Notes: generated from the letters alone by a model not told the origin. A stretch of DNA of 45,122 nucleotides, filler included, from Jimgerdemannia flammicorona (GCA_003990765.1; 2 parts of 2 records of this genome joined end to end with filler, not necessarily neighbours in it); one strand, 5' to 3'. Counted from the first letter of the whole stretch, positions 7,438 to 45,122 are shown. Program-made: numbers and translations.

Positions 7438-7525
7438 ACTGAATAATGCCAGTACCAGCATTCTGATGTAATACTGAATAATGCCAGCACTGGCATTTTG
7501 ATGTGATACTGAATTATACCAGCAT
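7438..7525 (+). repeat. About 2.5 tandem 35-bp units in family A LTR
   Basis: ACTGAATAATGCCAG(T/C)AC(C/T)(A/G)GCATT(C/T)TGATGT(A/G)AT at 7438, 7473, partial 7508; also in A2 at ~23160-23250. Confidence 0.85.
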
Positions 7526-14931: not shown

Positions 14932-14934
<3 letters not shown>

Positions 14935-14986
<52 letters not shown>

Positions 14987-18604: not shown

Positions 18605-18761
18605 ATTGCTAGCTAAAGGTCCCAAAACTATCTAATCTAACATACTTATCAGAACTCTTATATAATATTATATTACTAGTATCTTTTCTTTAAAAACTAT
18701 ACAAAAAATAATAAAAGAGATTTGTATAATATAAATTATACTAGAGAAAGATTAATGGGAC

Positions 18762-19060
18762 AGAAGTTTTGCTATCTAGCTCTGATATAGTCTTATATAT
18801 ATATTGGAGTTTTGAGTATATACTTTCAGTTATTAGTATATAGTTATTTTCCCTTTAGTAGTAGAAAGAGCATAGTGTATAGAATGAGATACAGGCTATT
18901 AGCTCTGCTATATCTAGCATAGTAGAGCTGCTAGATAATAGTAAGTCTATATTAATAAGAGTATAATATTCAGAAGGGGTGGGAGAGAGTTTTGGTCTAT
19001 ATAGTCTAGATTTTCTTCTAATAAAAATCTATAGGATATAGAGTTTATTTAAAAAAAATA
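18762..19060 (+). mobile_element. Retroposon X copy 1, 3' end with poly(A)
   Basis: Colinear with the reverse complement of 14984-15270; CTTCTAATAAAAA then an A run at 19051-19058. Confidence 0.82.
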
Positions 19061-22612: not shown

Positions 22613-22817
22613 AAATCAATCTTCCTAGTTGAGCCCTCAAATATAATATACTAGCTCAATAGAGGCAAATTACAAAATTGGAACTACTATAAAAATTAAT
22701 ATTTAGTAGTATAATAGACAAATCTAGATATTAAATAATTGTTAGTTTTTTTATTAAGATGAGTTCTTAGGTATAGATGGTGATTTTATATATAATAGTA
22801 TATTAATTTATATATAG

Positions 22818-25800
22818 TATCATGTAGTGATTACTGAGTCCTTCAAATATGTCAGATTCTCTTCAAGGTATATCTCTTAGACTAACTCAAGTTTGTTATA
22901 AGTAAGTTCTTATTAGAGTACCTTCTCAAGGTCTTATAGTCCTCAAACTTCTTATCTTTAACTATCTTGTTATCTCTTAGATTGCTTGTAAGGGATTGTG
23001 TGTAAATAAACCAGAACTGACTTTATTTCAAAGGAAATAAGAGGGGTATTTATATAAAATATAATTCAATGGTTATTAAGATATAAAGCTAAATATAAAT
23101 TCCAATAACTAAAACTACTAAGTTCCAGAGTCGGTACTGATGGTTGTACAGGTTCAGAATGCTGGTATAATTTGGTGTCACATCAAAATACTAGTACTGA
23201 CATTATTCAGTATTATATCAAAATATCAGTGCTGGTATTATTCAGTGTAATAAAAAACTTAAAGCAGAAAGTTCAGAATCATGGGGGCTTCATTCTCATC
23301 ATCAGAGGTCAGAATATCTTTGAAGGAGATGAGGTCCATGAATTAGTTATATAGGTCATACATTTCATATACTTCACATGCTTCATTGCGCATTTTATGT
23401 ATGTCAAAGTTATATGGGATGACGTCATTGTTGATGATATCAATTCAGCAGTAGTAGGAATAAGAAGATCTGGAGCTCTCCAGTCTATGAGGTTCTCTTC
23501 CACAAAATAGGAGACAAATGTGGGGTCTTGGAGAGGTCTAACCTGGATGCTTGGGTCTTGGAATACTGAGATCAATCCTTGCAGAAATTAGTCTGGATTG
23601 TCTTGAAGGATGGAGTGCCAGAAGTCTTCTACTTTATCATTATTGAGGGTAATAGTGGACTGGGCTTCTGTAGCCACTCTGGGTTCTAGTGTATTGATAT
23701 AGTGAGATGATAGATCTCTGAAATCTGAGACTCTAACATACTCCAAGTTGGGAATCGACTATGGTGCATGCCTGAAAATCTGATGGATCTTCTTAGCTAT
23801 TCTCATTTCATATATATCTATAGGAGTGGCATCTTGTAGCTCTTGAGTGCTGGCCTGTGGGAACTTCCAGCAGAGGAGGTTTCCTATTTTATACTCCTGC
23901 CATATTTGGAGGAATTTGGTGGCAATGGTGATCCTTGTTTCCATTTTAGAGCAGTAGAGGATATAATGATAAGGGTCACCAGTACCCAAGTTGATGCTAG
24001 GAGTCCTTCTTGAGCAGGTCCTCATAGCTCTTCTGATGTCTTGGAACATCCTTTCTTCAACTGAGGTACCTTAGTGGTTCCTTGACCTTGAGGTTTGGCA
24101 GGCAGCAGACATTTCATTTGTAGTAAGTCTTTGAGCTATTTTGAGATTAGTGAGTCTTGTTGGTTGCTGCTACTGCAGTTTCTTGATCCTTCTTTTATAT
24201 TCCTCAAGATACTCATACTGTAGTCACAATGACTCACAGTTGGTCATTATTGCTCATCTCATATGCTATATGATCTCCTTATACTCCGATCTGGTAGCTT
24301 GTGAGGAAAGGCTATCTCCTATACTGATGTCATTATTCTGAGGTCACTGTTACATCTTCCTCCTGAATAAGGATCTTCTTGAGCATCCTTATTCATTGAT
24401 CCAGTTCTGAAAAATTTACTGATCCCATAATCTCTGGCAAAGGGTCAAAAAGTGGTATTTATGGGCTAGTATCTTCTCTTTGTATTTTGGCATAATGGTG
24501 AAGGGTCGCTCCCTTCATATAGAGCAAGGGCCTAATTCAAATCTTGACCAATCAGTTGACAGTTTGAACTCCTCTGACTTTGAAAGTCTTATAGATGAGT
24601 AGTTGCCAGTACTGTATCTCTTAAAGAATAGTCTAGACAGATAGCCTGCTGGTCATGGGATATGCTGTTATGATTTGCGGACTAGAACCTCATAGGTGGT
24701 CATCACATTTTACTTCTCTTGTATAGGTTTGTGGTACTTCTTGAGTCTGTTCCTATGTACTGTGGTAGGCAGTATGGTCCCTGAGATTTATCTAAGCCAG
24801 AAGATAGTTCCCTTGATATCTTGCACATAGAAGGGTCCTTCCCATTTAGGCTCCAGTTTTCACAACCATGAGGCTTCTACTATATTTCAATATAGTAGAA
24901 CCTTTTCTCCAATTCGGATGAATTCTAGAGCCTTGTAATTCTTTTCCACATTCTTCCTTGTCAGTACTTGTGACTTAGTGATATAATCTTCAGCCTTCTT
25001 CCTGATTTGGTATAGTCTCCAGATTTCTGCATCAACCCATCTCCAAGTTAGGTCTAGATTTGTGGCTGAGGTTCTATTGGAATCTTCTTTTCTGAAAAGT
25101 AGCTCTCTTGGGGTAAAGTGTGTGCTCTGTGACTGTATGTCTTGTAGGACAGAGTGGGTGATTGGGAGATAGTTATCCCAATTCTCATATGTCTCTGAGA
25201 TTTTCACTAGGATGTTCTTAAGAGTCTTGTTGGTTCTCTCTGTCTGTTCATTTTCTTGAGGGTGGTATACAGTGGTCTTGATGTACTGGATCTTGTATTT
25301 CTGATACATTATCTCATAGAATCCATTGACAAATTCTGTGCTACAGTCTGTTGTGATTTGCTTTGGTGTCTTGTAGTAGCAGATGATTTCTTGGTGCAGG
25401 AAGTCAGCTATAGAGAGGGCATTGGCCTCTTGTAATACTCCTGCCTCTATCCATTTGGTAAAGAGGTCTACAATAACTATAATATAGTGATTTCCTGATA
25501 GTATTACTGGTAGTGGCCCAATAATATCCATTACAATGTGGTAGAAGGAGATAGACTCAATTCTTGATGACCTGGGTGCCTGGTCTTGCTGATCTTGTTT
25601 TTATTTTTGACACTTATCACACCCTTTGACAAATTGGTACAGGTCTTCTTCCATCTTGGGCACTACATGGTTCTTCTTGCTTTGTTGTATATGTTGGTTC
25701 TTCCTAAGTATCCTTGCTTATATACTTTCTTCATTACTTGATACTTCTTGTGTTTGGGTATTACTAGCTTTCCACCTTTTCTGAGTGTAGTATTGTCTAG

Positions 25801-26012
25801 TTTAAACTGTTTCTAAGTCCAGTTGATAATGGTGATTGTTTAGGGTTCAAGGTGGTTAGGCATCTTCTGCTGCCTAAGATAGCTGATTAATCCATAGTAT
25901 AGCTTCTTATTCATGTTGAATAGTCTTGATGGGGGTGTTTCAGAGTGTTCTTGAGAGTGTATCAGCATTGGTATTGGTTTTTCCTGAGTGGTGCTTGACA
26001 GTATAGTTATAC
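22818..26012 (-). mobile_element. Family A copy A2, 3' half (RNase H end, IN, PPT, 3' LTR)
   Basis: Reverse complement of A1 ~4688-7888; integrase ORF 24887-25531; LTR 24354-22818; cut at 26012 by family B LTR. Confidence 0.92.
23259..24112 (-). pseudogene. LTR-embedded ORF of family A in copy A2
   Basis: ATG 24112; ORF pieces 24049-23759 and 23575-23309 are in the same frame and match the A1 protein up to ENLIDWRAPDLL; frame differs after that. Confidence 0.6.
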
Positions 26013-28059
26013 TGTAAGAGATTTGCTTTTTAGGGTAACTGTTATGTAGTTCTGGAAAGGTTTTCTGGATATTCTGGAATACCATTTTCTTATGGTCAAG
26101 ATCAATTTCATATGGAGTACGTCCTCTATGCTTATTGATTTCAAGATCAGGTTGACGTCTCAACCAAAGTCCTTTTTTGGACTAGTTCTGGATATTCAGA
26201 ATTTCCATATTTCAGGAAGTTCAAGAAACTAAGACCAGTTTAGTTGAATTGGCATATCACTGCAGACAATACCCAATTAGGAAATTTCGTGATGGGGTTA
26301 GGAGTAGGACCTAATGGGGAGTGGATTTACTTAAGAGTGGTTTGTGGGTTATTTGAATGGGTTTATTTGCTATTCATGATATTGCTATGAGTAGTTCTGT
26401 GAAGGGATATTGTGGGGAAGTATTCAGGAATATTCTTGTGTGTTCAAGTCTGAGATTCTAAGGTCTGGGGGAGGGGGTATTTATACTAGTGAGGGGCTAT
26501 CTGGACTATACTGAATATGAATGTAGCACTAAGTACCTTGCTGAGTCAGAACATAGTCACATAGTATAAGTGTGATCTAATATATCAAGAGATTGTCTGA
26601 CTGCTGAGTCAGTTCACAGTCATGTCATACAAGGCTACTCTAACTATACTATGACTGCTAGGCTATTTATGGTTTAGGCACTGTCTGGGTAGTCCTTGAT
26701 GACATCACCATCGATTGTATCATCTCTGATGAAGTAGTCATCTAGAAAGAGTAGTTCGTGGATTACTTCTCCTTGTTCTCTGAGGTAATAATATATTGGA
26801 ACTTCATCTCTATCCCACAGGATAGTATCATCTGTCTCATATGCTGGATAAGATGTTGGTGGGTGAAGGAGGGGTGCATCATCTTCACTTTCATCAGATT
26901 CACTATCTACATACCTTCTGTAGGTTACAGTACTATGAGTCACAGGGTTATAGTAATCTGGTGGCTGTGGTTCATTTTGCTCATACTCGGGTAGTGGAGT
27001 AGTTAGTTCAATGTCGAGGGTTGTCTGGAGGTACAGATCATGTTCTCCAGTCTCTTCATTGTAGTTGAAGTAATCGGGGGTGAACGCAGATTGGTATTCA
27101 TACCAGTGATCATTGTCCCAATAAGTCTCGTATGCTATTATGAATTGTTATAAGTTCATCGGCAAGGTTGGCAGTGTGATCAGGGTTGGCAGAGATCCTT
27201 GGCTAGAGGTCATGTCAGTGTCAGAGGGATCATTGTCTTCTGCTTCATCTTCATCAAAGTGAATTATATCATAGATGTCTTTCATAGCATATCCAACTTG
27301 GGGCATTTGCAGGATACAATCATTAGAGTGTGAGAAGGTTCTGTCTGTGGTTTCGACATACTCGAGGTACTTGTGGTTGAGTTCTTGTATCATATCGTTG
27401 ATTTGGCCATAGGACAGAGTAGCGACCATTTCACTGGTGGTAACTCGGAGGCACAGAATAATAGTACTGTACTCATAGAAGAGTTCTCAATGTTTGCGGG
27501 CGATGAGCTTCTGGTGTTGAGACATCTGGGTAATGTCTGTATCATGATGGTGTTTGACCATATCTTCTAGGAGGCAGCTGATCTGGTAGTAGCTTGAGAT
27601 TTGTCCAATTCGGTGGGCCTCGCTAAGCATGTTCAGAGCATTCCAATAGGCTTCCACAAAGTAGAGGGGTACTAGGCTATGGATATTCATGAGGGGCAGA
27701 GAGGGTGTGACTCAGTTGACAATGGCATTCCAAATGTCAGTTCAGATATGGGTATAGATCATAGTGGTCATGTTTGTGTATTTGGAAGTTGTAGTTGTTG
27801 GTTGTTTTGGTTATCTAATTTGATGTGTCTCAGTATTTGGTATATATGTATTTGGTCCTGATTGGTAAGATTCCATTTGTATAAATCTTGTGTTCTGTGA
27901 CTTCATATTGACTCAGCTTTGTGTGCTGTGACTTCGGTTTGACTCAGCTTTGTAATCAAGCAGGTGATTTCCAGATTTGTTCAGAGGTCGCATGTGATTC
28001 TAGTGGCTTGTTCAGAGGGTGACATGTAATTTCGGTGGCTTGGAGGTTGTGCACTTACA
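26013..28059 (-). repeat. 3' LTR of B (2047 bp)
   Basis: Direct repeat of 34357-36406; TATAAATA on minus strand at 26478-26485, AATAAA at 26362-26367. Confidence 0.95.
26674..27906 (-). pseudogene. LTR-embedded ORF of family B (~410 codons), 3' LTR copy
   Basis: ATG 27906; ORF pieces starting 27690, 27429, 26943 share one frame ending at TAA 26674. Confidence 0.75.
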
Positions 28060-28075
28060 ACTCTCCCCTTCTTAG
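28060..28075 (-). promoter_or_regulatory. Polypurine tract of family B
   Basis: CTAAGAAGGGGAGAGT abutting the 3' LTR; same motif at 38988 and 41020. Confidence 0.9.
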
Positions 28076-28279
28076 CTTTCAATGTCCTTATTGGGGCCTT
28101 CTAATTTTGTTCGGTAGTATAGAGAAAATAGGCTTGCTTTCCATTTTGCCATTTTTCCAGAGGGTCAGTATTCTTGTCTTGTTTTGCTGAGTTCTTGGTT
28201 TGGTCTCCAATAATTATAATATTCGGAAGGATAATATATGGATAGGTGCAGAGTATTTGGTTCTAATTGTTCAAGGAAT

Positions 28280-29560
28280 CATATTCCTGAACTAGGTCAG
28301 TAGCATTCTGGAGATTGGTCTTGAGTTCTCAGGTTATATTGTGGATCAGATAACCTTTTCATTTGACAAGGTACTCAGGGTGGCTCTTGTTGCCACATTT
28401 GTTGAGGATTTGTTCAACTTCGTACTCTTCTTGATTATTAATAATAACAGGTGTAGGTGGTTTAGTGGTCTGGTTTGGAAATAGCTTGTCATCATTCTCA
28501 TTGTATCGCTTGAGATGTTGAACATTAAAGACTGGGTGAATCTTAATGGTGTCTGGTAGTGCCAATTTGTAGGAGGTTAGAGAAACTTGTGCAATAACTT
28601 CAAATAGTCCAATGAACTTGCTGTTCAGCTTTGTAGATAGTCTGTACTTGAGGTTGTCAACTCGGTATCCTCTGATGTCCAGTAGAACTTTTTCTCCAAT
28701 ATCAAAGGTTTCTTCTCAGCAGTGTTGGTTAACATACTGTGACTATTGTTCTTGAGCTTATGATAAATTCTCAATGGCAATCTGGCTTAGATTGCACATT
28801 CAAAGTAAGAATTCTTCAATAGCTTCAACTGTAGAGAGTTCCTCAGTGGTTTGGATAAGTGTCAAAGGGGTGTTTGGGTTTTGTCTAGTATTGGCGAAGA
28901 ATGGGGTCATTCTGAGAGAGGCTTGCTTGCTATTGTTATAGGTAAACTCAACTGCGGTGAGGTATTCATGCCAGTCATCTTGTCTGTAGAAAACATAGTT
29001 CCTTAGCATTTGTTCTAGAGTTCAGATCATTCTTTCAGTTTGGCCATCAGTTTCTGGGTAAAAGGCTGTAGATAGTGCAAGTTTTGTTCCAAGGTGTGCA
29101 TAGAGGGCTTTTCAAAAATGGCTGGTAAATTTCGGGTCTCGATCACTAACTATGATCTTGGGAAGACCATGATAGCAGAAGATGTTGTCAAACAAGAGTG
29201 TGGCTATGTCTGGTGCTGTTGCAGTAGTGGTAGTAGGCACAAAGTGGGCTTGTTTACTGAGATAGTCCACAAAGATAACAATTGCATCTTTCCTGTTCTT
29301 GGTTCAGGGTAGTTGTACAATAAAGTCTATAAAGATTTGTTTCCAATTAGCAGATGATACTGGGATAGGGTGAAGTAAGCCAGGTTTTGCTAGTGTTGAG
29401 AACTTGTTTCATTGGTAGGTATCACAGGAAGTGATGTAGCTTTTGAGCTGATCTGCCATGTGGGGCCAATAGAAGTTTTGAGAGATAACTTTGTAACATT
29501 TATCAAATCCTAAATGTCCAGCTATAGGGGCATCATGATATTTGAATAGGATAGTTCTTT
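28280..29560 (-). pseudogene. B integrase plus chromodomain
   Basis: AGHLGFDK, SCDTYQ, TDGQTER, EFTYNNS, KFIGLF, IHPVFNV, QEEYEVEQIL..EYLVK*KGY. Confidence 0.9.
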
Positions 29561-29769
29561 GGAGGTCTCAGTTATTTGGGACATACAGTCTGTCTTTGTA
29601 GTAGATAGCATTGTCCTTCAGTTGGTATTGATGATACTGTATATGCTTGTTGGCATTGTTACTATTCAGGATTTCTCACAGTGCTTGAGCTTCCTTATCA
29701 TTGGCACATACTGTGATAATTTATTCCATGATAGAGTTTGTAACTAAGGTGAGAGTTTGGATAACCTCT

Positions 29770-31100
29770 TTGATTGGTGGTCTGGAGATTATATCGGCAA
29801 CAATATTTTCCTTGCCAGAGCAGTACTGGATTTTGTAGTCAAAGTTGGTGAGGACTTTCATCCATCTGGCTTGCTTTTGAGAAAGGGTAGCCTGTGTCTT
29901 GATATTGACTAATGATTTGTGGTCAGTCAATATGGTAAAGTGTGCTCCTTCTAGGTAGAGTCGCCATTTGATCAGAGTATCTACAATGGCTAGCATTTCC
30001 TTCTTATGGGTTGCATAATTAATTTCAGCATTATTGAACTTACAAGAGTAATAGGCTACAGGGTGTCCTTCTTATATGAGTACTGCTCCAAGGACTAGGT
30101 CAGAGGCATTAGTGGTAACTTCATATAGCAGTGCAGGGTTTGCCGCTTGAAGTACTGGAGTAGTTATCAGGGCATCCTTTAGTGCTTGAAAGGCAGTATC
30201 TTTCTCAGGTCCCCAAGTTACAAGATTGTTGAAGTCTTTCTCTTATTTTATGGTCCAGGGTTGTTCTTGTTTCTTATTATGCTTGGTCATTTGGGTGAGA
30301 GTGGTAGCAATTTTAGCAAAGTTGGCAACAAATTGCCTGTAATAGTTTGTTAATCCCAGGAATAACTGGAGGTCTTTCAGCTTCTTGGGTCTGGGCCAAT
30401 CCTTGATTGCAGAGATTTTGCTGGGGTCCACTTTGATTCTATTTGGAGTGACAATGTGTCCAAGGAATTGAATTTCTTTCAGGAGAAATTCGCACTTACT
30501 GAGTTTTGCAAAGAGTCAGTTTTCTTGGAGTTTCAGTAGTACTAGTTCAAGGTGTTCAAGATATTCCTCCAGGGTTTTGCTAAAGACTAGGATGTCATCA
30601 ATGTAGACAACAATGAATTTGTCCAGGTATGGATGCAGAATGGTATTCATCAGTATCTGGAAGGTTGCTGGAGCATTAGTTAAGCCAAAGGGCATAACCA
30701 GGAACTTAAAGTATCCATAGCGAGTTTGGAAGGCTGTCTTGTAGATGTCTTCTTCTTTCATGACAATTTGCCAGTAACTATTTTGCAGGTCAAAGGAGCT
30801 CATGAATTGTGGATTGGTAAGTCTATTAAATATTTCATCAATCCTTAGTAGTGGGCAATAGTTCTTGATGGTCTGTTCATTGAGATCACGGTAGTCAATG
30901 CACATTCACAGGTCTCCTCCTTTCTTGACAACAAATAGGACTGGTACACCATAAGGTGATATGCTGGGTCTGATGAATCCTTGTTCTAGGAGTTCATCAA
31001 TTTCTTTCTTGAGTGCATTGATTTCTCTTGGAGACATGTGGTAGATTGACTTGAAGGCTAGTTTGGCATCTGAGATAGTCTTGATGGCATAGTCTACTGC
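29770..31100 (-). pseudogene. pol: B reverse transcriptase and RNase H
   Basis: MCIDYRDLN, FDLQNSYWQI, MPFGLTNAPATFQ, YIDD (30594-30605), FTILTDHKSL, NIVADIISR. Confidence 0.93.
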
Positions 31101-31389
31101 TTGTTTAGGAGGTAGGCCTTTTGGGAGCTTTTTTAGGAATATGTCTCAAAATTTCTGGAGTAGTGGTCTGACATGGCTGTCAGCTTTGAAAAAATCTTCT
31201 TCAGAGTTCTCAGGTTCTCCTTTGGATGGATGGATGGAGATGGTGAAGAGCAGGCATTTCTTGGCCAATTTCTTAAGTTGTAGCTTGTTGATGTGGGTGA
31301 TCTTTGGTCCAGGGTCACCAGAATTAAGTGGGTCTTTTTCGCCTTGCAGTTTGAAGTTGTGGTGTCTCTTCTTGATGGTCAGAGAATGG

Positions 31390-31700
31390 TTTACCCAATC
31401 GATCATGGGGTTCTCTTGTTTTAACCATGGAGTCTCAAGGATGATTTCATTGTCAGGAAGTGGTACAATTTGAAGGGTAACATATACTAAGTAGTCGCCA
31501 ATTCGGATTGGTAGATTGTAGACTTCTTTGCTAATAACATATGAGGTCCCATCAGCTGTAGCAACTGCTTGAGTTTGCTATACTGGAGAGGTAAAGACCT
31601 TCAGTCTGTTGGCTGTCTCTTCATTGATGAAGTTGCCTGAGGCACCACTGTCTATCATAATCTTGACAGGTGCTCGGTTGACAAAAGCCTTAAGTGTGAG
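31390..31700 (-). pseudogene. B aspartic protease
   Basis: KIMIDSGASGNFI near 31630-31665; IILETPWL. Confidence 0.88.
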
Positions 31701-31924
31701 TAGTTTGTCTGATCCAATGGTGGTGATTTCAGTTGTAGGAGCTTTCTTTCTGTTGGTTCTTCTTTGAGCCAGTTCATTGACACAGAAGAAGCAATCATCA
31801 ATCATTCAGGAGGAGTATATTCTAATGCCATAGAGACATCAGCCACTTGGTACATATCCATCTTCGATTTTCTTATAGAATTGTTTTTCTTTGCTCATAG
31901 TAGGTTGGGCTGGGGCCTTGTTTG

Positions 31925-32340
31925 ATGAGCCGAATCCTTTAGATCCTCAGATGGTGGGCAGTAGTTCAGGGACTTCCTTGACTGTCAGGGTTGACTCGAT
32001 TTTTTCAAATAGGATCTGGGTAATGCAGAAACCAATAGGGATCTTGAAGGGTATCCAACTGTAGTTTCAGATGAGGACAATAATTTCGCCTATATAATCC
32101 TTATCAATGACTCCTCCTTCTACTGAGAGTCCTTTCAATGCTAGGCTGCTGCAACAGCATATTCTTCCAACATGTCCTTCAGGGATATGGATGCTGATTC
32201 CTGTGTAGACTTGTTTGACTTCTTGGTTGGAAACTGTAGCTTCTTCCACTGTATACAGGTCATATCCAGCTGCTTTCTGACTTCCTTTGGTTGGGGCTTT
32301 AGCAGTTTGTCTTAACTTGACAAAGTCCAGTGTTCTGGTG
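31925..32340 (-). pseudogene. dut: B dUTPase domain (between gag and PR)
   Basis: AAGYDLY, VYTGISI, SSLALKG, GGVIDKDYIGEIIVLI, ITQILF, GSKGFGSS. Confidence 0.92.
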
Positions 32341-32344
32341 GTCA

Positions 32345-34340
32345 GGTTATTGAGGTGGTGCAGAGTGGTAACAGTTGCTCTTGTTGCTGTTCAGGGTTTT
32401 TAGTTAGGGCAGGTACTGGCCATATGTCCTGTCTTTCGGCAGTAGAAGCATGCTCTGCTTCTTCGAAGTTCATTCCTTTCACCTTCAGTAAGTTTTTTGA
32501 AGATACTTGGTTGGGTAGGTTCATGATTTCTGAGTATCCAAGAGGTGGATGTAGAGGGAGCTCGGGATGCTTCATGCTTGGATTCTTCTTTCTTGGTCCA
32601 AGTCTTTTCCTTGTTGTTAAATTGTCTTCAGGGCAGAATTGGTCCAGCTGTTAGGATTTGCTTGACCATAGTCTTGATTCTTGCCAGGTACCACTGTTGG
32701 TGGTTGCAACCAACTGGGCAGTCTTGTTCTCAGATTTTCTAGTAAGCCATTCAGGCAGGGCATCAAATAAGTGGTCTGCTCTTGTACCATTTCATGCTTC
32801 ATCATTGGCAATGTATCCTAGGCCCACAGTGTTCAGGAGTGACTTGAGTTTTATACAGAAGGTTTTGAATTCTTCTTTACCATATACATCAAATTTGAGG
32901 TTGCAGAGTTTTACTTGAGATTTGGCAATCATGGTTTTGCTGTAGTATTGAGCAATCATGAGTTGTTTGAGTCCAGGGGCTGCAGGATGGGCTCTATATC
33001 CTGGGGCATTGTTTGCTGCATTCTGAGCAACTACTGCAGGTCAGGTATCCCATGTGAGGGGTTTTTCAGGAAGGATTCACCACCATTCTTCGGCAGGTCC
33101 TTGGAAGAATGTAACAACTTGGCAGACATAGGCTATAGTGGTAGCAAAGAGTTGTTCCAGAGTGTGGTCTTGATTGTTTGTCAGAATGCAGTCAGCAACT
33201 TGCTCATTAGTCCATTGATTGGCTTTGAAGTTGGTGTCAACTACACTAATGAAGCTTTGGACTTCTTGTGCAGTACCATTGAAGGTAGGTAGACTCAGAT
33301 TTTTTATAGATCGGGTCTGTTCAGCTAAGGCAGTAATGGTTGCTGCCATTATAGCTACTTGGGCTGTGAGATCAAGAATCTGTTGGTTTGCCATATTGTT
33401 TGCTGGAGGTAGTTGGACTGCTAGTAGTGGTATTACTAGTACTACTTGAGGTACTGGTGCAGAGTGTGATAGGGTTCTTTGGGTCTGTGTAAGTTGCTGG
33501 AGTAGTAGTTGTGGATCTGGAGTAAGGGCTTGATAGATAGCTATTTGTTGTTGTGTAGGTGTATTCTGTCCTGATGGGAGTGCGTCTCCTTTAGTAGTGT
33601 ATCCAGTATCAAATTCAGTGAGATACTCCTCCTCCTCTTCAGTTTGATCCCTGTATAATTGGGTTTGCTTGGCATTGAAGTAGACAGAATCAGTTGTATA
33701 TCTAATTTCAGATGGACTTAATTCAAAGTCAAGTTCAGGTTCAGTATTGGTTTCAGATTCAGGTAGGGCTGTAGTAGGACCTGCTTCAGGTTCAGGGTCA
33801 GGTAGTTGATGAAGGGTTTCTCTTGCTTCTTCTTTAAGAATATGGCAGGCCTTGCTGTTCTGAAATCAGTAGTATAGTGTGGTCTTGGTCCTGGTATGGT
33901 GAAAGTTGGTAGAGTTGAGCCACTTGGCTACAGAGGCTTGGGCTTCATGGGGAACTAAGGCTAGGAAGACTGCTGCTGGTTGTCCTAGATCGCTCGGATT
34001 TGTGGAGCTGACAAAACTCTTGTTGAGAAGAGTAAAGAAGGCTTCAATAAGACCTTCTTCATCTTGACTTGCTGGGTGTAGTGCAAGAAGTTCGGTGAAT
34101 AGGGTTTCTCCTATTTGCTGATTTAATCGGAGTACTTCTTTCTTTGAATGAAGTTTGTCCCACTTGTTGTAAGTGTGGAGGTCAAATTGTCCTTATACAT
34201 CAGGTTCAATTCTCTCCAGATTGTCGGATGGTTCAGGATAAATTCCAGTTCAGAGGTTGGGCTTTATACTAACTTGTAGGAATTCTCAGAAGGGTTTGTA
34301 GTGGGGTAAGGAAGCATCTTGAAGTGGAATTGGATTGTAA
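32345..34340 (-). pseudogene. gag: B gag with long in-frame N-terminal extension
   Basis: LPTFNGTAQEVQSFI capsid start (ORF 33394-33077); CFYCRKTGHMASTC knuckle at ~32410-32452; frame stays largely open upstream to the PBS. Confidence 0.8.
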
Positions 34341-34353
34341 ACTGCTGCTACCA
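34340..34353 (-). promoter_or_regulatory. Primer-binding site of family B (initiator tRNA-Met type)
   Basis: TGGTAGCAGCAG 3 nt after the 5' LTR; same in B'2 ending at 44409; TGGTAGC matches the complement of tRNAi-Met 3' ends. Confidence 0.8.
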
Positions 34354-34356
34354 AGT

Positions 34357-36406
34357 TGTAAGAGGTTTGCTTTTTAGGGTAACCATTATGTAGTTCTGGA
34401 AAGATTTTCTGGATATTCTGGAATACCATTTTTTTATGGTCAAGATCAATTTCATATAGAGTATGTTCTCTATACTTATTGATTTCAAGATCAGGTTGAC
34501 ATCTCAACCAAAGTCCTTTTTTGGACTAGTTCTAGATGTTCAGGATTTCCATATTTCAGGAAGTTCAAGAAACTAAGACCAGCTTAGTTGAATTGGCATA
34601 TTGCTGCAGACAATACCTAATTAGCAAATTTCATGAAGGGGTTAGAAGTGAGACCTAACAGGAAGTGGATTTACTTAAGAGTGGTTGGTGGGTTATTTGA
34701 ATAGATTTATTTGCTATTCATGATATTGCTATACTAGAAGTAGTTGTATGAAGGAATATTGTAGAGAAGTATTCAGGAATGTTCTTGTGTATTCGAGTCT
34801 GAGATTCTGAGGTCTGGGGGAGGGGATATTTATACTAGTGAGGGGCTATCTGGACTATGCTGAATATGGATGTAGCACTAAGTGCTTTGCTGAGTCAGAA
34901 TGTAGTCACATAGTACAAGTGTGATCTGATATGTCAAGAGATCGTCTGACTGCTGAGTCAGTTCACAGTCACATTGTACAAGGCTAATCTAACTATACTA
35001 TGACTGCTAGGCTATTTATGGGTTTAGGCACTATCTGAGTAGTCCTTGATGACATCACCATCGATTGCATCATCTCTGATGAAGTAGTCATCTAGAAAAA
35101 GTGGTTTGCAGATTACTTCTCCTTGTTTGCTGAGGTAATAATATATTGGAACTTCGTCTCCATCCCACAAGATGGCGTCATCTGTCTCATATGCTAGATA
35201 AGGTATTGGTGGGTGAAGGAGGGGTGCATCATCTTCACTTTCATCGGATTCACTGTCTGCATATCTTCTATAGGTTACAGCACTATGAGTTGCAGGGTTG
35301 TAGTAAGCTGGTAGCTGTGGTTCATATCACTTATACTCAGGTGGTGAAGTGGTTAGTTCAATCTCGAGAGTTGTCTGGAGGTACAGGTTGTGTTCTCTGA
35401 TCTCTTCATTGTAGTTGAAGTAATCAGTAAATGCAGGTTGGTATTCATACCAGTAATCATTATCCCAATAAGTCTTGTATGCTGTTATAAATTGTTGTAA
35501 GTTCATTGGCAAGGTTGGCAGTGTGATCAGGGTTGGTAGAGATCCTTGGCTAGAGATCATGTTGGCATCAGAGGAATCATTGTCTTCTGCTTCATCTTCA
35601 TTGAAGTGAATTATATCATAGATATCCTTCATGATATATCCAACTTGGGGCATTTGCAGGATATGATCGTTGGGGTGTAGGAAGGTTCTGTCTGTGGTTT
35701 CAACATACTCGAGATACTTGTGGTTGAGTTCTTGTATCATGTCATCAATTTGGCTATAGGACAGGGTAGCAACCATTTCACTGGTAATAACTCAGAGGTG
35801 GGAAATAATGGTACTATACTCGTAGAAGAGTTCTCAATATTTGCGGGTGATGAGCTTCTGGTGTTGAGACATCTGGGTGATGTCTGTATCATGGTAGTGT
35901 TTGACCATGTCTTCCAGGAGGCGGCCGATCTGGTAGTAGCTTGAGATTTGTCCAATTCGGTAGGCCTTGCTAAGCATGTTCAGAGCATTCCATTGGACTT
36001 CCATGAAGTAGAGGGGTGCTAGGCTGTGGATATTCATGAGGGGTAGAGGGAGTGTGGCTCTATTGACAATGGTATTCCAAATGTCAGCGCAGATATGGAT
36101 ATAGATCTCAGTGGTCATGTTTGTGTGTTTGGAAGTTATAGTTGTTGTTTGTTTTGGTTCTCTTATTCGATGCGTTTTGGTGCTTGGTATATATATATTT
36201 GATCCTGATTGGTAAAATTCCATTTGTGTAAATCTTGTGTTCTGTGACTTCATATTGACTCAGCTTTGTGTGCTGTGACTTTGGTTTGACTCAGCTTCGT
36301 GATCAAGCAGGTGATTTCCAGATTTGTTCAGAGGTCGTGTGTGATTTCAGTGGCTTGTTCAGAGGGTGACATGTAATTTCGGTGGCTTGGAGGTTGTGCA
36401 CTTACA
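34357..36406 (-). repeat. 5' LTR of B (2050 bp)
   Basis: TGTAAG...CTTACA; direct repeat of 26013-28059. Confidence 0.95.
35024..36253 (-). pseudogene. LTR-embedded ORF of family B (410 codons), 5' LTR copy
   Basis: ORFs 36253-35834 and 35776-35327 are in frame and continue to TAA 35024 (1230 nt). Confidence 0.75.
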
Positions 36407-37480
36407 CCTTAAATAAGCTTAAGATATAGTTCTTGAACAAAACTCAGAGCTAATAAACTCAACCAGAATATATTCTAAATTGTATAAATATATCACTAAT
36501 ACTATCTCTAAGAATACTATTATAGAAAATCATCTATTTAGTAAAAAATTACAATATAATAAACAAATTCAACATAATAAGAGTGAGAAAGAATAAGAAA
36601 TAATAATTACCCATCTGGTCAAAAAAAACACTACCTTATCTTACTAAAAGAGAAGAAGACCAAAAGTGAAATAATACAGTTAAAGAAGTATGTCAGATTT
36701 ATAATATAACTTCTCATCTAATACTGAACCAGATCTACCATCTATAAGGAGTAAGTAAATGAGATTTAACTCAAATATAAAAGGATGAGATATATTTACT
36801 ATATAAAATATATCTGTAATAAATCTGTAAACTATACTATAAATACTACTATATTATGAATACTATGAATAATAAATGCTACAAATATTATATATAAAAA
36901 CTATATAAATCTCAACTTATGTCAATAAAGATTTAGTTTCAATAATAATTTATAAACTTTTATATTATATATAATTTGCTATTGAATATATACTCCTAAT
37001 ACTACCATATACTTCTTGAATGAAAATCAGTTACAATTATATATAATGCCAAGTTTGTATAACTGTATTTTTGGTCTATATATTTGGCTATTTAGTTTAA
37101 CTATATATTTACAAATAAAATATATATTTAAAAAAGTTCTTCTTATAATATATGATCTGCATACTTATTTACTAAATATAAATAAAAAGAATATATATTC
37201 AATCTATCTACTAAGTTCTTTCTTACTGAATCATATTCCTCAAACAAGAGTTACATATATACTATATAAATAATTATATTTATAAATATAATATTGAACT
37301 ATCTAGTCTATATAGTAATAGCTATTTCTGTTTTACAATTATGAGAGACTATGTTTTTAGTACTATATCTATTATATTATATTACTTCAAGTATATAAGT
37401 TAATAGACTTAGTAATTTAAAGAAAAGACAAACTTAGATAAAAAGATATTTATTTATATTTTATCTTATCTCAAACTACT

Positions 37481-39512
37481 TATAAGAGAGTTACTTGTTA
37501 GAGTAACCATTACATAGTTCTGGAAGGATTTTCTGGAAGTTCTTGATGTTCTGAAAGACTGTTTTCTTAAGGTCAAGATCAATTTCATATAGAGTATATC
37601 CTCTACACTTATTGATTTTAAGATTGAGTTGATATCTCAACCAAAGTCCTCTTTCAGACTAGTTCTGGATGTTCAGGATTTTCTATATTTTAGGAAGTTC
37701 AAGAAACTAAGACTAGCTTAGTTGAATTGTCATATTACTGCAGATAATACCCAATTAGGAAATTTTGTGATGAGTTAGAAGTGGGATCTAACAGGGAGCA
37801 GATTTACTTAAGAGTAGTTTATGGGTTATTAAATAGGTTTATTCACTATTTATAATATTGCTATACTAGGAGTAGTTATATAAAGAGATATTGTAGAGAA
37901 GTGTTCAGAAATATTCTTATATATTTGAGTCTATTCAAGTCTGAGATTCTGAGGTCTGGGAGAGTGGATATTTATACAGTGAGGGACTATCTGGACTATA
38001 CTGAATATGGATATAGTACTTAGTACCTTACTGAGTCAGAATATAGTTATATATGTAGTATAAGTGTGATCTGACATATCAAGAGATCATCTGACTGCTA
38101 AGTCAGTTTATAGTCATATTATATAAGGCTAATCTAACTATACTATGACTGCTAAGCTATTTATAGATTTAGATGCTATCTGGTTAGTCTTTGATAACAT
38201 TACTATTAATGACATCATCTCTAGTAAAGTCTGAGCAGTTTTCTGACTTCTGATATTATTAGTTTCAAAGGTGTTATCACCTCTGTCTCTTATAAAATTA
38301 AGACTATCCTTAGTGATAGTGGTTATACAAGAATAACAGGTCTTGGTTCTCTTTTTTTTTTTTAGACTACTAATGTATTTATAAGAACTGACTATTCTTG
38401 TCTAGAGTAAGGGCTCCCAATATCATGGCTGGGGGTTCAAATCTCTCAGAAATGATATTTTCTATAATCTGAGGCAATTTCTAGTAGTAATATCTGTCAT
38501 GTAGATGGGCTTGAGATTAGTTTTGACAATGTTAGCTTTCTTGAGTTCAGATGAAGCATCTGTTATTCTTTAATAGAGATGATATAGATAAAGTGAACAG
38601 AGTTGTTCAAATGTATTTTGCTTCTGCTAAGTAATGAGATCTTTGTATAATTGCAGTGTATCTTGGTCTTGGGTTAATAAGTGCAGTTTATGAACCTTTG
38701 GTAGATAAGAGAGATTCTTCTCATCTTAGTTTGAGTTTGGTACTTTAGTTTTCTTTTGTAATAGTATGGTTTATCAAAACTAGTTATAGAGGTATAGAGT
38801 CAGTCTTATAGTTATAGTACTTCTTCTGATATTCTTATATCTTGGCAGTAGGTTTTTGTGCTTGCTGACATATTTTATGTAACTAGGTGATCTCTTCAGT
38901 AACTTGTTTTGTAGTCTCACATGTGGTTTCCAAATTAGTTCTGAGGATGATATGTGATTTTGGTAGCTTGGAGGTTGTATACTTATAACTCTCCCCTTCT
39001 TAGCTTTCAACACTCTCATCAAGGCCTTCTAATTTAATCTAGTGTTGTTGTACCATTTGGATGATTCTTATAGCTGTATTTGTTAAGGATTTGTTTAACT
39101 TTGTATTCTTCTTGGTCATTAATAATAACAGATATAGGTGGTTTTGCAGTTTGGTTCAGAAATATATCTCAGGCTTTCTGAGGTAAGAGTCTGATATGGT
39201 TGTCAACTTTGGAAAAGTCTTCTTCAAGGTTTTCAGATTCTCCTTTAGATGGACAGATAGAGATAGCAAAGAGAGGACATTTCTTGGTCAATTTCTTAAG
39301 CTATAGCTTATTGATATAAGTGATCTTTGGTCCAGGGTTACTAGAACTAAGTGGGTCCTTTTTGCCTTACAGTTTGAAGTTGTGGCATCCTTTCTTGATA
39401 GTTAGAGAATGGTTTATCCAATTGATCATAAGGTTCTCTTGTTTTAACCATAGGGTTCTAAGGATGATTTTATTGTTAGGAAGTAGTATAATCTAGAGTA
39501 TAACATATACTC
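37481..39512 (-). mobile_element. Non-autonomous B' copy 1 (3' LTR 37481-38987, PPT, deleted internal part), cut by B' copy 2
   Basis: LTR TATAAG...CTTATA of 1507 bp; chromodomain start joined to post-protease linker near 39160. Confidence 0.88.
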
Positions 39513-42500
39513 TATAAGAGGATTACTTGTTAGAGTAATCATTACATAGTTCTGGAAGAGTTTTCTGAAAGTTCTGGATATTCTAGAAGACTATTTTCTT
39601 AAGATCAAGATCAATTTCATATGGAGTACATCTTCTATACTTATTGATTTCAAGATCAGGTTGATGTCTCAATCAAAGTCCTTTTTTGGACTAGTTCTGG
39701 ATGTTCAGGATTTTCCATATTTCAGGAAGTTCAAGAAACTAAGACCAGCTTAGTTGAATCAGCATATCACTATAGACAATACCCAATTAGGAAATTTTGT
39801 GATGGGATTAGGAGTGGGACCTAATGGAGAGTAGATTTACTTAAGAGTAGTTTGTGGGTTATTAATAGGTTTATTCACTATTTATGATATTGCTATACTA
39901 GGAGTAGTTATGTAAAAGGATATTGTAGAGAAGTGCTCAGGAGTTGTGTTCAGAATATTTAAGTATTTAAGTCTTTAAGTCTTTAAGTCTTCAAGTCTAA
40001 GGTCTGGAGAAGAGAGTATTTATACTAGTGAGGGACTATCTAGGCTATACTGAATATGGATGTAGCACTTAGTGCCTTGCTGAGTCAGAATACAGTTACA
40101 TAGTACAAGTGTGATCTGACATATCAAGAGATCATCTGACTGCTGAGTCAGTTCACAGTCATATTATATAAGGCTAATCTAACTATATTATGACTGCTAA
40201 GCTATCTATAGATTTAGATACTATCTGGTTAGTCTTTGATGACATCACTATTGATGACATCATCTTTGACAAAGTCTAAGCAGTTTTCTGACTTCTGATA
40301 TCATCAGTTTCAAAGATATCATTACTTCTATTTCTTGCAAGATTAAGACTGTCCTTGGTGGTAGTGGTTGTACAAAGATAACAGGTCTTGATTCTCTTTT
40401 TTTTTTGGACTTCTGGTACATTTGTGAGGACTGGCCATCCTTGTCTAGAGTGAGAGTTCTCAATGTCATGGCTGGGGGTTCAAACCTCTCAGAAATGATA
40501 TTTTCTATAATTTAAGGTAATTTCTAGTAGTAATATCTATCATATAGATGGGCTTGAGATTGGTTTTGACAATGTCAGCTTTTTTGAGTTCAGATGAAGT
40601 ATCTGTTATTCTCTAATAAAGGTGATACAGATAGAGCAAACAGAGTTATTCAAATACATTTTACTTCTGCTAAGTAATGAGGTCTTGTATAGTTGTAGTG
40701 TATCTTGATCTTTAGTTGATAAGTACCTTTGATAGATGAGATAGGGTTCTTCTTGTCTTGGTTTGGTTTTGGTACTTTCAGTTTCTTTTTGTAATAGTAT
40801 AATATACCAAACTAGTTATAGAGATTCAGAGTCAGTCTTATGGTTGTAGTACTTCTTCTAGTATTCTTATATCTTGGCAATAAGTTCTTATACTTGCTGG
40901 TATATTTTGTATAACCAGATGATCTCTTCAGTAACTTGTTTTATAGTCTCACATATGGTTTCCAAATTGGTTTTGAGGATGACATGTGATTTTGGTAGCT
41001 TGGAGGTTATATGCTTATAACTCTCCCCTTCTTAGCTTTTGACATCCTCATCAAGACCTTCTAATTTGATCTAGTATTGTTGTATCATTTGGATGGTTCT
41101 TGTGGCTGTATTTGTTGAGAATTTGTTCAACTTTATATTCTTCTTGATCATTAATAATGACAGGTGCAGGTAATTCTGTGGTTTAGTTCAGAAATGTGTC
41201 TCAGACTTTCTGGAGTAAGAGTCTGACATAGCTGTTAACTTTGGAAAAGTCTTCTTCAAAGTTCTCAGATTCTCCTTTGGATGGACAGATGGAGATGACA
41301 AAGAGAGGACATTTCTTGGCCAATTTCATGAGCTGTAGCTTGTTGATATAAGTGATCTTTGGTCCAGGGTCACTAAAGCTAAGTGGGTTCTTTTTATCTT
41401 ACAGTTTGAAGTTATGGCATTCTTTCTTGATGATCAGAGAATGGTTTATCCAATTGATCATGGGGTTCTCTTATTTCAACCATGGAGTTCCAAGAATGAT
41501 TTCATTGTCAGGAAGTGGTACAATCTGGAGGATAATATGTACTCAGTAGTCACCAATTTGGAAGGGCAGGTTGCAGACTTCCTTGCTAATAACATAAGAG
41601 GTTCCATCAGCTTTGGCAACTGCTTGGGTTTGTTGTACTAGAGATGTCAGGACCTTAAGTCTGTTGGCTGTTTCTTCATTGATGAAGTTGCCTGAGGCAC
41701 CACTGTCTATCATAATCTTGATAGGTGCTCAGTTGACAAAAGCTTGAAGTATAAGTAGTTTGTCTGATCTAATGATGGTGATTTCAGTTGTAGGAGTTTT
41801 CCTTCTATTGGTTCTTCTTTGAGCCAGTTCATTGACACAAGAGAAGTAATCATCAATCATTCAGAAAGAGTACATTCCAATGTCATGAGAGCATCAGCTA
41901 CTTAGTATATATCCATCTTTGATTTTCTTGTAGAATTATTCTTCTTTACTTGTAGTAGGTTGGGCTGGGGCCTTATTTGATGAGCCAAATCCTTTGGATC
42001 CTCAGATGGTAGGTAGTAGTTCAGGGACTTTCTTGACTGTCAGGGTTGACTCAATTTTCTCAAATAGGATCTGGGCAATATAGAAACCAATGGGGATCTT
42101 GAAGGGTGTCCAATTGTGATTTCAGATGAGGACAATAATTTCGCCTATATAATCTTCATCAATGACTCTTATTTCTACTGAGAGTCCTTTCAATGCTAGG
42201 CTGCTGTGATAGCATATTCTTCCAACATGTCCTTCAGGAATTTGGATACTAATTCCTATGTAGACTTACTTGACTTCTCAGTTGGAAACTATAGCTTCTT
42301 CAGCTACATACAGGTTATATCTAGCTGCCTTTTGACTTCCTTTAGTTGGGGTCTTGGTAGTTTGTCTTAACTTAATAAAGTCCAGTATTCTGGTGATCAG
42401 GTTATTAAGGTAGTGCAGAGTAGTAATAGTTGCTCATGTTACTGTTTGGGGTTTTTAGTTAGAGCAGGCACTGGCCATGTATCCTGTCTTTTGGCAACAG

Positions 42501-45056
42501 AAACATACTCTGCTTCTTCAAAGTTCATTTCTTTCTTCTTTGGTGAGTTTCTTGAAGGTACTTGACTGAGTGGGTTCATGATTTCTGAGTGTCCATGAGG
42601 TGGATGTTGAGAGAGCTCAGGATGCTTCATGCTTGGGTTCTTCTTTCTTAGTCCAAGTCTTTTCCTTGTTGTTGAATTATCTTTGGGGCAGAATTGGTCC
42701 AGCTATTAGGATTTGCTTGAGTATAGTCTTGATTCTTGCCAGGTACCATTGTTGGTGATCACAACCAATTAGGTGTCCTTGTTCTCAGATTTTTCTTATA
42801 AGTCATTCAGGTAGTACATCAAATAGATAGTCTGCTCTTGTACCATTTTGTACTTCATCATTGGTAATATATCCTAGGCCAATAGTGTTCAGGAGTAACT
42901 CAAGTTTTGTACAGAAAGTTTCAAATTCTTTCTTACTATATATATCAAATTTGAGGTTATAGAGTTTTACTCGAGATTTGGCAATCATGGTTTCACTGCA
43001 GTATTGAGCAATTATAAGTTATTTCAGTTCAGGGGCTGCAGGATGGACTCTATATTCTGAGGTATTGTTTGTTGCATTTTGAGCAACTACTGTAGGTCAG
43101 GTATCCTATGTATGTGAGGGGTTTTTCTGGAAGGGTTTGTCACCATTCTTCAGCGAGTTCTCTAAAGAATATAACAACTTGACAGATATAGGCTGTAGTG
43201 GTAGCAAAGAGTTGTTCCAGAGTATGGTCTTGATTGTTTATCAGAAGATAGTTCACAACTTACTCATTAGTCTATTTATTGGCTTCAAAGTTGGTATCAA
43301 CTATACTAATAAAGCTTTGGACTTCTTGTATAGTACTATTGAAGATAGATAGGCTCAGATTTTTGATAGGTTGGGTCTGTTCAGCTAAGGCAGTAATGGT
43401 TGCTATCATTATTGCTACCTGGGCTATAAGGTCAAGAATCTGTTGGTTTGTCATGTTATTTACTGGAAGTGGTTGGACTACTGGTAGTGGTGTTACTGGT
43501 ACTACTTGAGGTACTGGTGCAGAGTGTGATGGGGTTCTTTGGATCTGTGTAAGTTGCTGGAGTAGTAGTTGTGGGTCTAGAGTAGAGCTTGATAGATAGC
43601 TGTCTATTGCTGTATAGGTGTATTATGTTCTAATGGAGATACATCTCCTTCAGTAGTATATCTGAGATTGAATTCACTGAGATACTCCTCCTCCTCTTTG
43701 ACTTAGTCCCTAGTTGGGTTTGCTTGGCATCAAAGTAGACAGAATCAGTAGTATATCTGATTTCAGATGGACTTAATTCAAAGTCAAGTTCTGGTTTAGT
43801 ATTGGTTTCAGGTTCAGATAGAGCTATAGTAGAGCCTACTTCTAGTTTAGGATCAGATTGTTGGCAAAGAGTTTTCCTTACTTCTTTCTTAAGAATTTGG
43901 TAGGCCTTATAATTCTGGAATTGATAGTATAATATAGTCTTGGTCCTGGTATGGTGAAAGTCAGTGGAGTTGAGCCACCTGGCTACAGAGGCTTGGGCTT
44001 CATGAAGAACTAAGGCTAGAAAGACTGCTGCTGGTTATCCTAGATTACTCAGATTTGTAGAGCTGACAAAACTCTTGTTGAGAAGAGTAAAGAAGACTTC
44101 TATAAGACCTTTTTCATTTTGACTTGCTGGGTGTAGTGCAAGAAGTTCAGTGTATAGAGTTTCACCTATTTGCTGATTTAACTGAAGTACTTCTTTCTTT
44201 GAATGAAGTTTGTCCCACTTGTTACAGGTGTGGAGGTCAAATTGTCTTTGTATATCAGGTTCAATTTTCTCCAGATTATCAGATAGTTTGGGATAAATTC
44301 CAGTTCAGAGGTTGGGCTTTATATCAACTTATAAAAATTTCTCAGAGAGATTTGTAGTGGGGTGAGGAAGTGTCTTAAAGCAGAATTGAATTGTATACTG
44401 CTGCTACCAAGTTATAAGAGAGTTATTTGTTAGGATAACTATTACATAGTTCTGGAAGAGTTTTCTGGAAGTTCTGGATATTCTGAAAGACTGTTTTCTT
44501 AAGGTCAAGATCAATTTCATATAGAGTACATTCTCTATACTTATTGATTTTAAGATTGAGTTGACATCTCAACTAAAGTCCTTTTTCGGACTAGTTCTGA
44601 ATGTTTAGGATTTTCTGTATTTCAGGAAGTTCAAGAAACTAAGACCAGCTTAGTTGGATCAGCATATCACTGCAGACAATATCCAATTAGAAAATTTTGT
44701 GATGTGATTAGGAGTGGGACCTAATGGAGAGTGGATTTACTTAAGAGTGATTTGTGGATTATTAAATAGGTTTATTTGCTATTCATGATATTGCTATACT
44801 AGAAGTAGTTGTGTAAAAGGATATTGTAGGGAAGTGCTCAGGAGTTGTGTTTGGAATGTTCAAGTCTTCAAGTCTTCAAGTTTTCAAGTCTGAGGTCTAG
44901 GAGAGAGGGTATTTATACTAGTGAGGGGCTATCTGGGCTATACTGAATATGGATATAGTACTTAGTACCTTGCTGAGTCAGAATACAGTCATATAGTACA
45001 AGTGTGATCTAATATATCAAGAGATCATCTGACTGCTGAGTCAGTTTATAGTCATG

Positions 45057-45058
<2 letters not shown>
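39513..45058 (-). mobile_element. Non-autonomous B' copy 2 (3' LTR 39513-41019; gag-dUTPase-PR; 5' LTR from 44413, truncated)
   Basis: Internal region colinear with B 31140-34356; RT/RH/IN absent; PBS and PPT present. Confidence 0.9.
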
Positions 45059-45113
<55 letters not shown>

Positions 45114-45122
45114 CTTTTTTTT
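45059..45122 (-). repeat. Poly(T) run, probable poly(A) tail of a further retroposon inserted in the B' LTR
   Basis: LTR consensus breaks at GTCATGTC|TTTT; same pattern as 14935 and 10842; element body is outside the window. Confidence 0.55.

Follow-up and report, generated by a model that had tools for sequence, protein, structure and literature searches.

The question raised by this locus is whether the long frame found in both long terminal repeats (LTRs) of a chromovirus, called ORFx here, is or was a gene, and if so, whose. The window, meaning the whole stretch of DNA that was analysed, comprises 45,122 nt (filler included) of Jimgerdemannia flammicorona (GCA_003990765.1), with two parts of two records joined end to end. 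Self-comparison of the window by BLAST identified a pair of repeats of 89.5% identity over 2056 columns, both read on the minus strand and regarded as the LTRs of one retrotransposon, element B. The 5' LTR occupied 34357..36409, with the proper ends at 36406 (TGTAAG) and 34357 (CTCTTACA), and the 3' LTR occupied 26013..28062, with the proper start at 28059. The repeats had TG...CA ends, a PBS-like TGGTAGCAGCAG was located 3 nt beyond the 5' LTR (34342..34353, minus strand) and a polypurine tract (PPT), AAGAAGGGGAGAG, abutted the 3' LTR (28061..28073, minus strand).

The internal region of element B (28063..34356, minus strand, 6294 nt) extended from gag to a chromodomain, and a Pfam search placed in one frame the zf-CCHC, dUTPase, protease, RVT_1, RNase H, integrase and chromodomain matches. 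The dUTPase (PF00692, E 4.7e-29) was encoded at 31923-32303 on the minus strand, in the interval from the gag zinc knuckle to the protease. The order PR-RT-RNase H-integrase was preserved in the single pol frame, with RVP_2 at residues 882-998, RVT_1 at 1144-1302 (E 1.1e-29), RT_RNaseH at 1411-1505, Integrase_H2C2 at 1596-1651, rve at 1674-1764 and SH3_Tf2-1 at 1887-1951. The chromodomain (28278-28424, minus strand) was found C-terminally to the integrase at residues 1978-2026 (PF00385, E 1.5e-5), and this match, in a decayed copy, was marginal (25.3 bits at a cut-off of 25.1). On the basis of the LTR ends, PBS, PPT and this set of domains, element B is a chromovirus (Ty3/gypsy with a chromodomain) bearing a dUTPase, and its repeats are true LTRs.

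No target-site duplication was detected around element B, the flanks of which read TAAGG and GTATA; recombination or mutation of the flanks may account for this, and the assignment of the LTRs is unaffected. An inverted partial copy of another element, A (22808-26013), stops exactly at the 3' LTR of element B, and the other flank (36410-37476) is AT-rich (26-30% G+C) and gave no match to element A. Element A is unrelated to B, with LTRs at about 217-649 and 7453-7886 and a piece of dUTPase at 2919-3545 on the plus strand (E 2.7e-12). Elsewhere in the window, the GC skew is strongly negative (-0.23 to -0.54) over the region 11000-19000 (30-45% G+C), and a G+C-rich island at 20000-22000 (49-50%) contains an RVT_1 frame (20518-21381, plus strand, E 3.3e-20) that has no relation to elements A to C.

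The first-pass annotation had described one frame in the gag-pol sense in both LTRs of a chromovirus, with copies differing by a 3-nt indel and with most stops being sense in the partner, and each of these points was reproduced. The copy in the 5' LTR (35024..36253, minus strand) is 1230 nt long and consists of 409 codons and TAA, whereas the copy in the 3' LTR (26674..27906, minus strand) has 1233 nt, i.e. 410 codons and TAA, the only difference in length being one Pro codon absent from the 5' copy. Three internal stops interrupt the 5' copy (codons 140, 154 and 310) and five the 3' copy (codons 32, 55, 65, 140 and 253). The TGA at codon 140 is the sole stop common to both LTRs, and opposite all the others the partner has a sense codon. 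Numbered along the LTR, codons 50 to 461 of frame 0 are open but for these three or five stops. ORFx differs in frame from pol, and LTR codons 16, 20 and 49, situated between pol and ORFx, are stops in both LTRs.

The openness of ORFx was confronted with first-order Markov simulations, in which 26.6 +/- 5.1 and 28.3 +/- 5.2 stops were expected in the two stretches and none of the 5000 sequences had as few as observed. The remaining five frames of the same stretch contained 11-40 stops. Stop density per 100 codons was 0.73 and 1.22 in the ORFx copies and 1.79 in pol (25/1397, counted over the 1397 codons from the zinc knuckle to the chromodomain), with 5.0-7.6 in the off-frames of pol. The base composition at codon positions correlated with that of pol when ORFx was read in frame (r 0.92 and 0.86), whereas the ORFx off-frames gave r values of -0.36 to -0.50 and the 667 non-coding nt of the LTR gave values of -0.13 to 0.15. 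The simulations together with the controls for stop density and composition indicate that at the time of insertion ORFx was as good a coding region as pol. It could be argued that ORFx is not a gene and stands open by chance, since its sense strand is poor in T and G, which lowers the frequency of stops, and that the related database proteins described below owe their open frames to chance and were singled out by gene callers. Such an origin does not agree with the failure of composition-matched simulations to produce a frame as open, with a pol-like periodicity confined to this frame, or with the 19-40 stops present in the other two sense frames.

In element B itself ORFx is now a pseudogene, as is the rest of the element. 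The LTR pair differed by 189 transitions and 18 transversions. The CpG observed/expected ratio was 0.26-0.29, seven CpG being kept in both copies and 29 in one copy only, and CpG were the sites most often mutated, whereas the TpA ratio was not raised (0.86-0.90). Classical CpA-type RIP was considered as the mutation process and was disfavoured by both ratios and by the CpG-centred changes. The decay of element B thus looks centred on CpG deamination. Transitions of the C-to-T type, strongest at CpG, have put the three and five stops into the ORFx copies of a dead element. The TGA common to both copies fits parallel loss of a CpG; as only seven CpG were kept in both copies relative to 29 in one, a CGA mutated in both is unsurprising.

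The differences within the LTR pair carry no information on selection. Among the ORFx codons differing between the LTRs, 45 changes were synonymous and 77 non-synonymous, which looks like neutral decay with no constraint on ORFx in this copy. Because the LTRs of one insertion diverge only after that insertion, dN/dS between them is silent on constraint, and selection on ORFx is to be judged only from a comparison between lineages. The dN/dS test advanced in the first-pass annotation therefore yields nothing on selection when applied to this LTR pair. The density of differences was 0.117 per nt inside ORFx (144) and 0.077 per nt outside (63), which counts against the reading of ORFx as a coding gene.

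Relatives of ORFx were sought by a HMMER scan of 1,835,955,588 representative proteins (E<=1e-3), which returned three matches, none of them named, two of which, P0001 and P0002, were accepted as relatives. The third, P0003 (E 5e-4), is a repeat protein and was rejected (hhalign probability 16%, Pfam rows inflated by repeats). Word-indexed searches of 5.8 billion clusters added no relative (1/854 candidates near the length of ORFx, 1/67 shorter and 0/1658 longer), locus scans of metagenome, viral and genome contig collections gave 0 loci and within the window tblastn matches to ORFx lay in the two LTRs of element B only. The accepted relatives number only two, each a protein from a contig of about 1 kb, and their residence in LTRs is putative, which counts against the reading of ORFx as an LTR-borne gene.

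P0002 (128 aa, from a 1180-nt contig; E 4.8e-59) is 80% identical to ORFx residues 46-173 and begins at Met46. Its frame continues through the two 5'-copy stops in its span and has Arg at the position of the common TGA, so that this stop is not fixed in the ORFx family. At 115 of its 128 positions P0002 agrees with one or other LTR copy, and therefore it represents the same family in a better preserved state.

P0001 (247 aa, from a 998-nt contig; E 6e-87) is more distant. It aligns to ORFx residues 160-408 at the 60% level (147/250 identities and 195/250 positives), with three gaps, all of them of whole codons, and ends at the same stop. It is open for 247 codons, and at 164 of these (about 66%) its residue is that of one LTR copy or the other. 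When a 248-codon piece of ORFx was subjected to neutral substitution up to the divergence of P0001, it remained free of stops in 3, 3, 16 and 10 per 1000 runs under four settings. Since neutral runs were stop-free in only 0.3-1.6%, the comparison points to selection having held the ORFx frame open in at least one diverged lineage. The force of this figure is weakened by the fact that gene callers record only open frames and that metagenomes contain thousands of copies. P0001 starts at the equivalent of Met160 and the N-terminal half of ORFx lies outside its span, so this half is unconfirmed in the lineage of P0001.

The bearing of these relatives on the chance-open explanation is direct. Ascertainment by gene callers of copies that happen to be open speaks in its favour, but at 60% identity a relative with 78% similarity and with gaps of whole codons only is not what it predicts, nor is the rarity of open outcomes in the neutral runs, and this explanation is considered very improbable. 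Conversely, ORFx was very probably a real protein-coding gene once.

The arrangement seen in element B was also looked for in four public runs (soil metagenomes and 'organism A'), which yielded 3027, 407, 446 and 54 LTR-like short contigs, 80-99% like the LTR of element B along its full length. Loose ends in these runs reproduced the LTR-PBS junction in X2 and the PPT-LTR junction in X2 and X3. The sequencing runs listed shared only a small part of the words (at most 0.20), and none was an RNA run. So many LTR-like contigs with the same junctions indicate that the arrangement belongs to a high-copy family and not to this insertion alone. The window differed from the run contigs almost exclusively by transitions. 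Among the 12 of 18 indel rows listed, two were inside ORFx and represented the same 3-nt insertion, i.e. the missing Pro codon, and the other 10, all of 1 nt, fell between 34545 and 34791, where the 3' part of the LTR is non-coding.

Concerning its position, ORFx corresponds to nt 157-1386 of the 2053-nt LTR. Like the ORF of mouse mammary tumour virus (MMTV) Sag, it is contained entirely within the LTR and reads in the sense direction; both copies are in frame. The box TATAAATA (34827..34834, minus strand), presumed to be the core promoter of the genomic RNA, was found 190 nt downstream of the ORFx stop (35026-35024), in agreement with the earlier description of the frame as upstream of the TATA box. 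Two TGACTCA motifs (34891-34897 and 34954-34960) precede TATAAATA by about 60 and 120 nt, and AATAAA, a presumed poly(A) signal near the R/U5 border, is located at 34706..34711 (minus strand). Because TATAAATA and, farther on, AATAAA both lie downstream of the ORFx stop, the placement of ORFx in U3, judged from the position of the TATA box, is plausible.

A second group of candidate signals precedes the coding part. The likelier start of ORFx is the ATG of Met46 (36116..36118, minus strand; 364 codons), at which P0002 begins and close to which the predicted helices start (residue 43). A possible LTR-internal promoter, TATATATATA (36188..36197, minus strand), the TATATA of which is retained in the 3' LTR copy, is situated 70 nt upstream of this ATG. 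Two TGAGTCA motifs (36262-36256 and 36293-36287, minus strand) occur in a repeated GCTGAGTCAA, identical between the LTRs; we take these motifs to resemble AP-1/Gcn4-type sites. All promoter motifs around ORFx are consensus matches only and are treated as candidates. In the whole window TGAGTCA/TGACTCA occurred 20 times, compared with 11.3 +/- 2.95 expected, and 0/100 shuffles reached 20. Most of these occurrences form pairs in LTRs, upstream of two TATA-like boxes (34891-34960, 36256-36293 and the matching LTR sites). At the very start of the LTR, TGTAAGT contains GTAAGT as its bases 2-7 (36400-36405 and 28053-28058, minus strand), which resembles the consensus of a 5' splice site and could be due to chance.

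If transcription of the genomic RNA began near the 5' end of the LTR, ORFx would lie in a very long R and form the first cistron, like ORF0/ORF1 of some plant gypsy elements. The two TGAGTCA motifs, the same in both LTRs, and TATATATA upstream of Met46 would suit such a start. However, the better box, TATAAATA, with two TGACTCA upstream of it and AATAAA about 120 nt downstream, lies past ORFx, in the part that is conserved between the two types of LTR present in the window (see below). An R of about 1.5 kb is, moreover, unusual among LTR elements, and transcription of ORFx as a leader cistron is regarded as decidedly improbable.

The second type of LTR, referred to as C-type, was found at 39513..41022 (minus strand), with a second copy at 37477-38990. 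It shares with the LTR of element B only nt 1-53 and 1325-2051 of the latter, and between these common parts 1271 nt of the B LTR (the 1.27-kb block) are replaced by about 700 nt of unrelated sequence. The 1.27-kb block includes ORFx minus its last 20 codons as well as the TGAGTCA pair and TATATATATA, and in the C-type LTR only the last 18 codons of ORFx were recognisable (E 0.021 and 0.057). ORFx thus sits in a swappable block of the presumed U3, and since the C-type LTR is without ORFx, the gene is not needed in cis. Element C (37477-45122) is a deletion derivative of a B-like element in which the deletion has brought the chromodomain up to the end of the protease; its unit, consisting of the internal remnant and the 1.5-kb LTR, is present in tandem (37477-39512 and 39508-41544, 85% alike).

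The exchange of a discrete block for unrelated sequence in a sister LTR variant is what would be expected if a host or foreign gene had recently been captured into U3 together with its promoter, of no use to the element and still open in some copies owing to the recency of its arrival. The promoter-like module held by the same block and the propagation of the C-type element without it agree with such a passenger. Against this stand the lack of any non-LTR homologue among 1.84 billion representatives or the 5.8-billion clusters searched in three length ranges, and a codon-position composition like that of pol, from which a long stay in the element can be argued. The frame of P0001 has remained open at about 66% identity, and the boundary of the block falls 20 codons inside the ORF and not around it. 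A recent capture is thus judged unlikely. The reading preferred here, probable though well short of certain, is that ORFx is a genuine, lineage-restricted gene located wholly inside the LTR of a dUTPase-bearing chromovirus, in sense orientation and, by the TATA box, in U3.

The nature of the product was approached through its sequence and predicted structure. The description given earlier, of a helical-looking N-terminal half and an acidic, Tyr-rich C-terminal half with no recognised domain, was borne out by the data. Secondary structure prediction, of low confidence, gave helices from about residue 43 to 186 and little beyond. The C-terminal part (247 residues) has a pI of 4.05, with 46 Asp+Glu as opposed to 10 Lys+Arg, 23 Tyr, 24 Pro and no Cys. 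By composition only, such an acidic-aromatic tail could belong to an activation or interaction domain. No membrane segment was detected in four sequences (maximum Kyte-Doolittle 19-residue mean 0.57-1.23), and without a hydrophobic segment ORFx is neither env-like nor Sag-like.

In four sequences 0 Pfam families were found, and a sequence-profile search of PDB gave two matches at E 0.08, which were rejected. AF2 models reached a pLDDT of 30.5 for the whole ORFx and 53.6 (pTM 0.40) for the N-domain, and a fold search with the N-domain model left 0/215 PDB and 0/388 BFVD matches at E<=0.001. The best Z of VIA-align, 9.4, concerned generic three-helix bundles and was below the stated noise level for helical models. 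In the ESM Atlas, the model of P0001 had a pLDDT of 0.39 and no usable match, and the best score for P0002 was 0.93, its 155 shared features falling short of the guide value of 170. The fold and domain check proposed with the first description of the frame thus returned no known family or significant fold match.

Under the preferred reading of ORFx as a gene resident in U3, the copying of U3 to both ends at reverse transcription would give two ORFx copies per new insertion and one per solo LTR. The product would be an accessory protein of about 364 aa from Met46, with about 140 aa of helical N-domain followed by a tail that is acidic, rich in Tyr and Pro and probably disordered. It could be expressed from a short mRNA running from the LTR-internal module (two TGAGTCA and TATATATA upstream of Met46) to the LTR poly(A) signal or, by an alternative route, from a subgenomic or spliced 3' RNA. 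That ORFx serves the element is a claim on which the arguments are evenly poised. A role as a regulatory adaptor, e.g. in stimulating the LTR as an acidic activator or in opposing silencing by the host, is speculative, and the transactivator or silencing suppressor proposed in the first-pass annotation is doubtful at best. In its most extended form, the proposal would make the LTR a complete gene, with a promoter module, a 364-codon ORF and a poly(A) signal, the acidic, Tyr-rich product of which would act in trans on the family, as a transcriptional activator of LTRs or an anti-methylation/silencing factor. This version is a long shot; if true, there would be two expression units in a full element and one in each solo LTR, an LTR-retrotransposon counterpart of the U3 accessory genes of retroviruses.

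Among known systems, the nearest in position is sag of MMTV, a superantigen ORF in the U3 of a betaretrovirus LTR, encoding a membrane-anchored glycoprotein of a vertebrate retrovirus. Carriage of a gene within the LTR is familiar above all from MMTV and is unusual for a chromodomain retrotransposon. Like sag, ORFx is a complete sense ORF lying wholly in the LTR, upstream of the presumed promoter and in both copies of an unusually long LTR, and as an accessory gene it has no relation to gag or pol. Unlike sag, it has no hydrophobic segment and no Pfam family, and it resides in an env-less chromovirus; no sequence relation to Sag was found in the Pfam search of four sequences or among the three unnamed matches in the 1.84 billion proteins. 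HIV/SIV nef and foamy-virus bel/bet are 3' accessory ORFs that start ahead of the PPT and only overlap U3; foamy viruses have an internal promoter. They are comparable to ORFx as 3'-terminal accessory genes on the genomic RNA, the foamy internal promoter being of the kind proposed here, whereas the start of ORFx lies within the LTR, at a depth of 154 nt for Met1 or 289 nt for Met46, and searches with ORFx found no sequence relation to nef or bel/bet.

Additional ORFs are also found in other LTR retrotransposons, and Retand is reportedly one of them. Retrosat2/RIRE elements carry ORF0, an extra ORF upstream of gag in the internal region, according to the part of PMC3485330 cited here, and the ORF3s of bdelloid elements lie between pol and the 3' LTR, typically as separate transcription units or spliced messages (PMC5408684, section cited). 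With these and with Retand, ORFx shares the character of a lineage-specific ORF added to gag-pol, often without relatives or a known function; in the portions of the sources cited, however, their ORFs are in the internal region, whereas ORFx is in the LTR and is duplicated at each insertion. ORFx has neither the signal/transmembrane segment of an env-like ORF3 nor its location, as it starts past the PPT, inside the LTR. The position upstream of gag that characterizes ORF0/ORF1 of plant gypsy elements (Retrosat2, Ogre) is not that of ORFx either, and in element B the region from the PBS to gag is part of the gag frame.

Variation mainly in U3 is described for crapaud of Podospora, in which, according to the passages cited from PMC10787394, subfamilies diverge chiefly in the 5' half of the LTR, i.e. 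the U3 half ahead of the TATA box, while the 3' half is conserved. The B-type and C-type LTRs follow this pattern. According to the same passages, in which no ORF is mentioned, crapaud LTRs are 339-443 bp long with a variable part under 200 bp, in contrast to the variable block of the B LTR, which is 1.27 kb long and coding. Fungal chromoviruses bearing a dUTPase, i.e. chromodomain gypsy elements with a dUTPase domain as in element B, are known from Postia, Phanerochaete and Tuber (PMC2864245, section on these elements). The legend of figure 3 there refers to an 'additional ORF with unknown function', and the section differs from the present case in describing no LTR-borne ORF. Phrase searches of the open-access literature turned up no description of a non-retroviral LTR element with an ORF within its LTR, although searches of this kind can show absence only weakly.

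LTR retrotransposons rarely carry extra genes, and where the sections cited describe such genes they are internal, whereas a conserved gene in U3 is duplicated at each insertion, survives as a solo LTR and could be expressed without gag-pol. If ORFx is functional, env-less retrotransposons can evolve U3 accessory genes like those of retroviruses, and it would offer a handle on how such elements meet host control, here heavy C-to-T mutation at CpG. For annotation, the case means that real genes lacking known relatives can go unseen in 2-kb 'LTRs' when these are masked as repeats. ORFx is not a member of the retroviral gene families considered above and is, by analogy, similar to the U3 ORF of MMTV in its position and to nef or bet as a 3' accessory gene.
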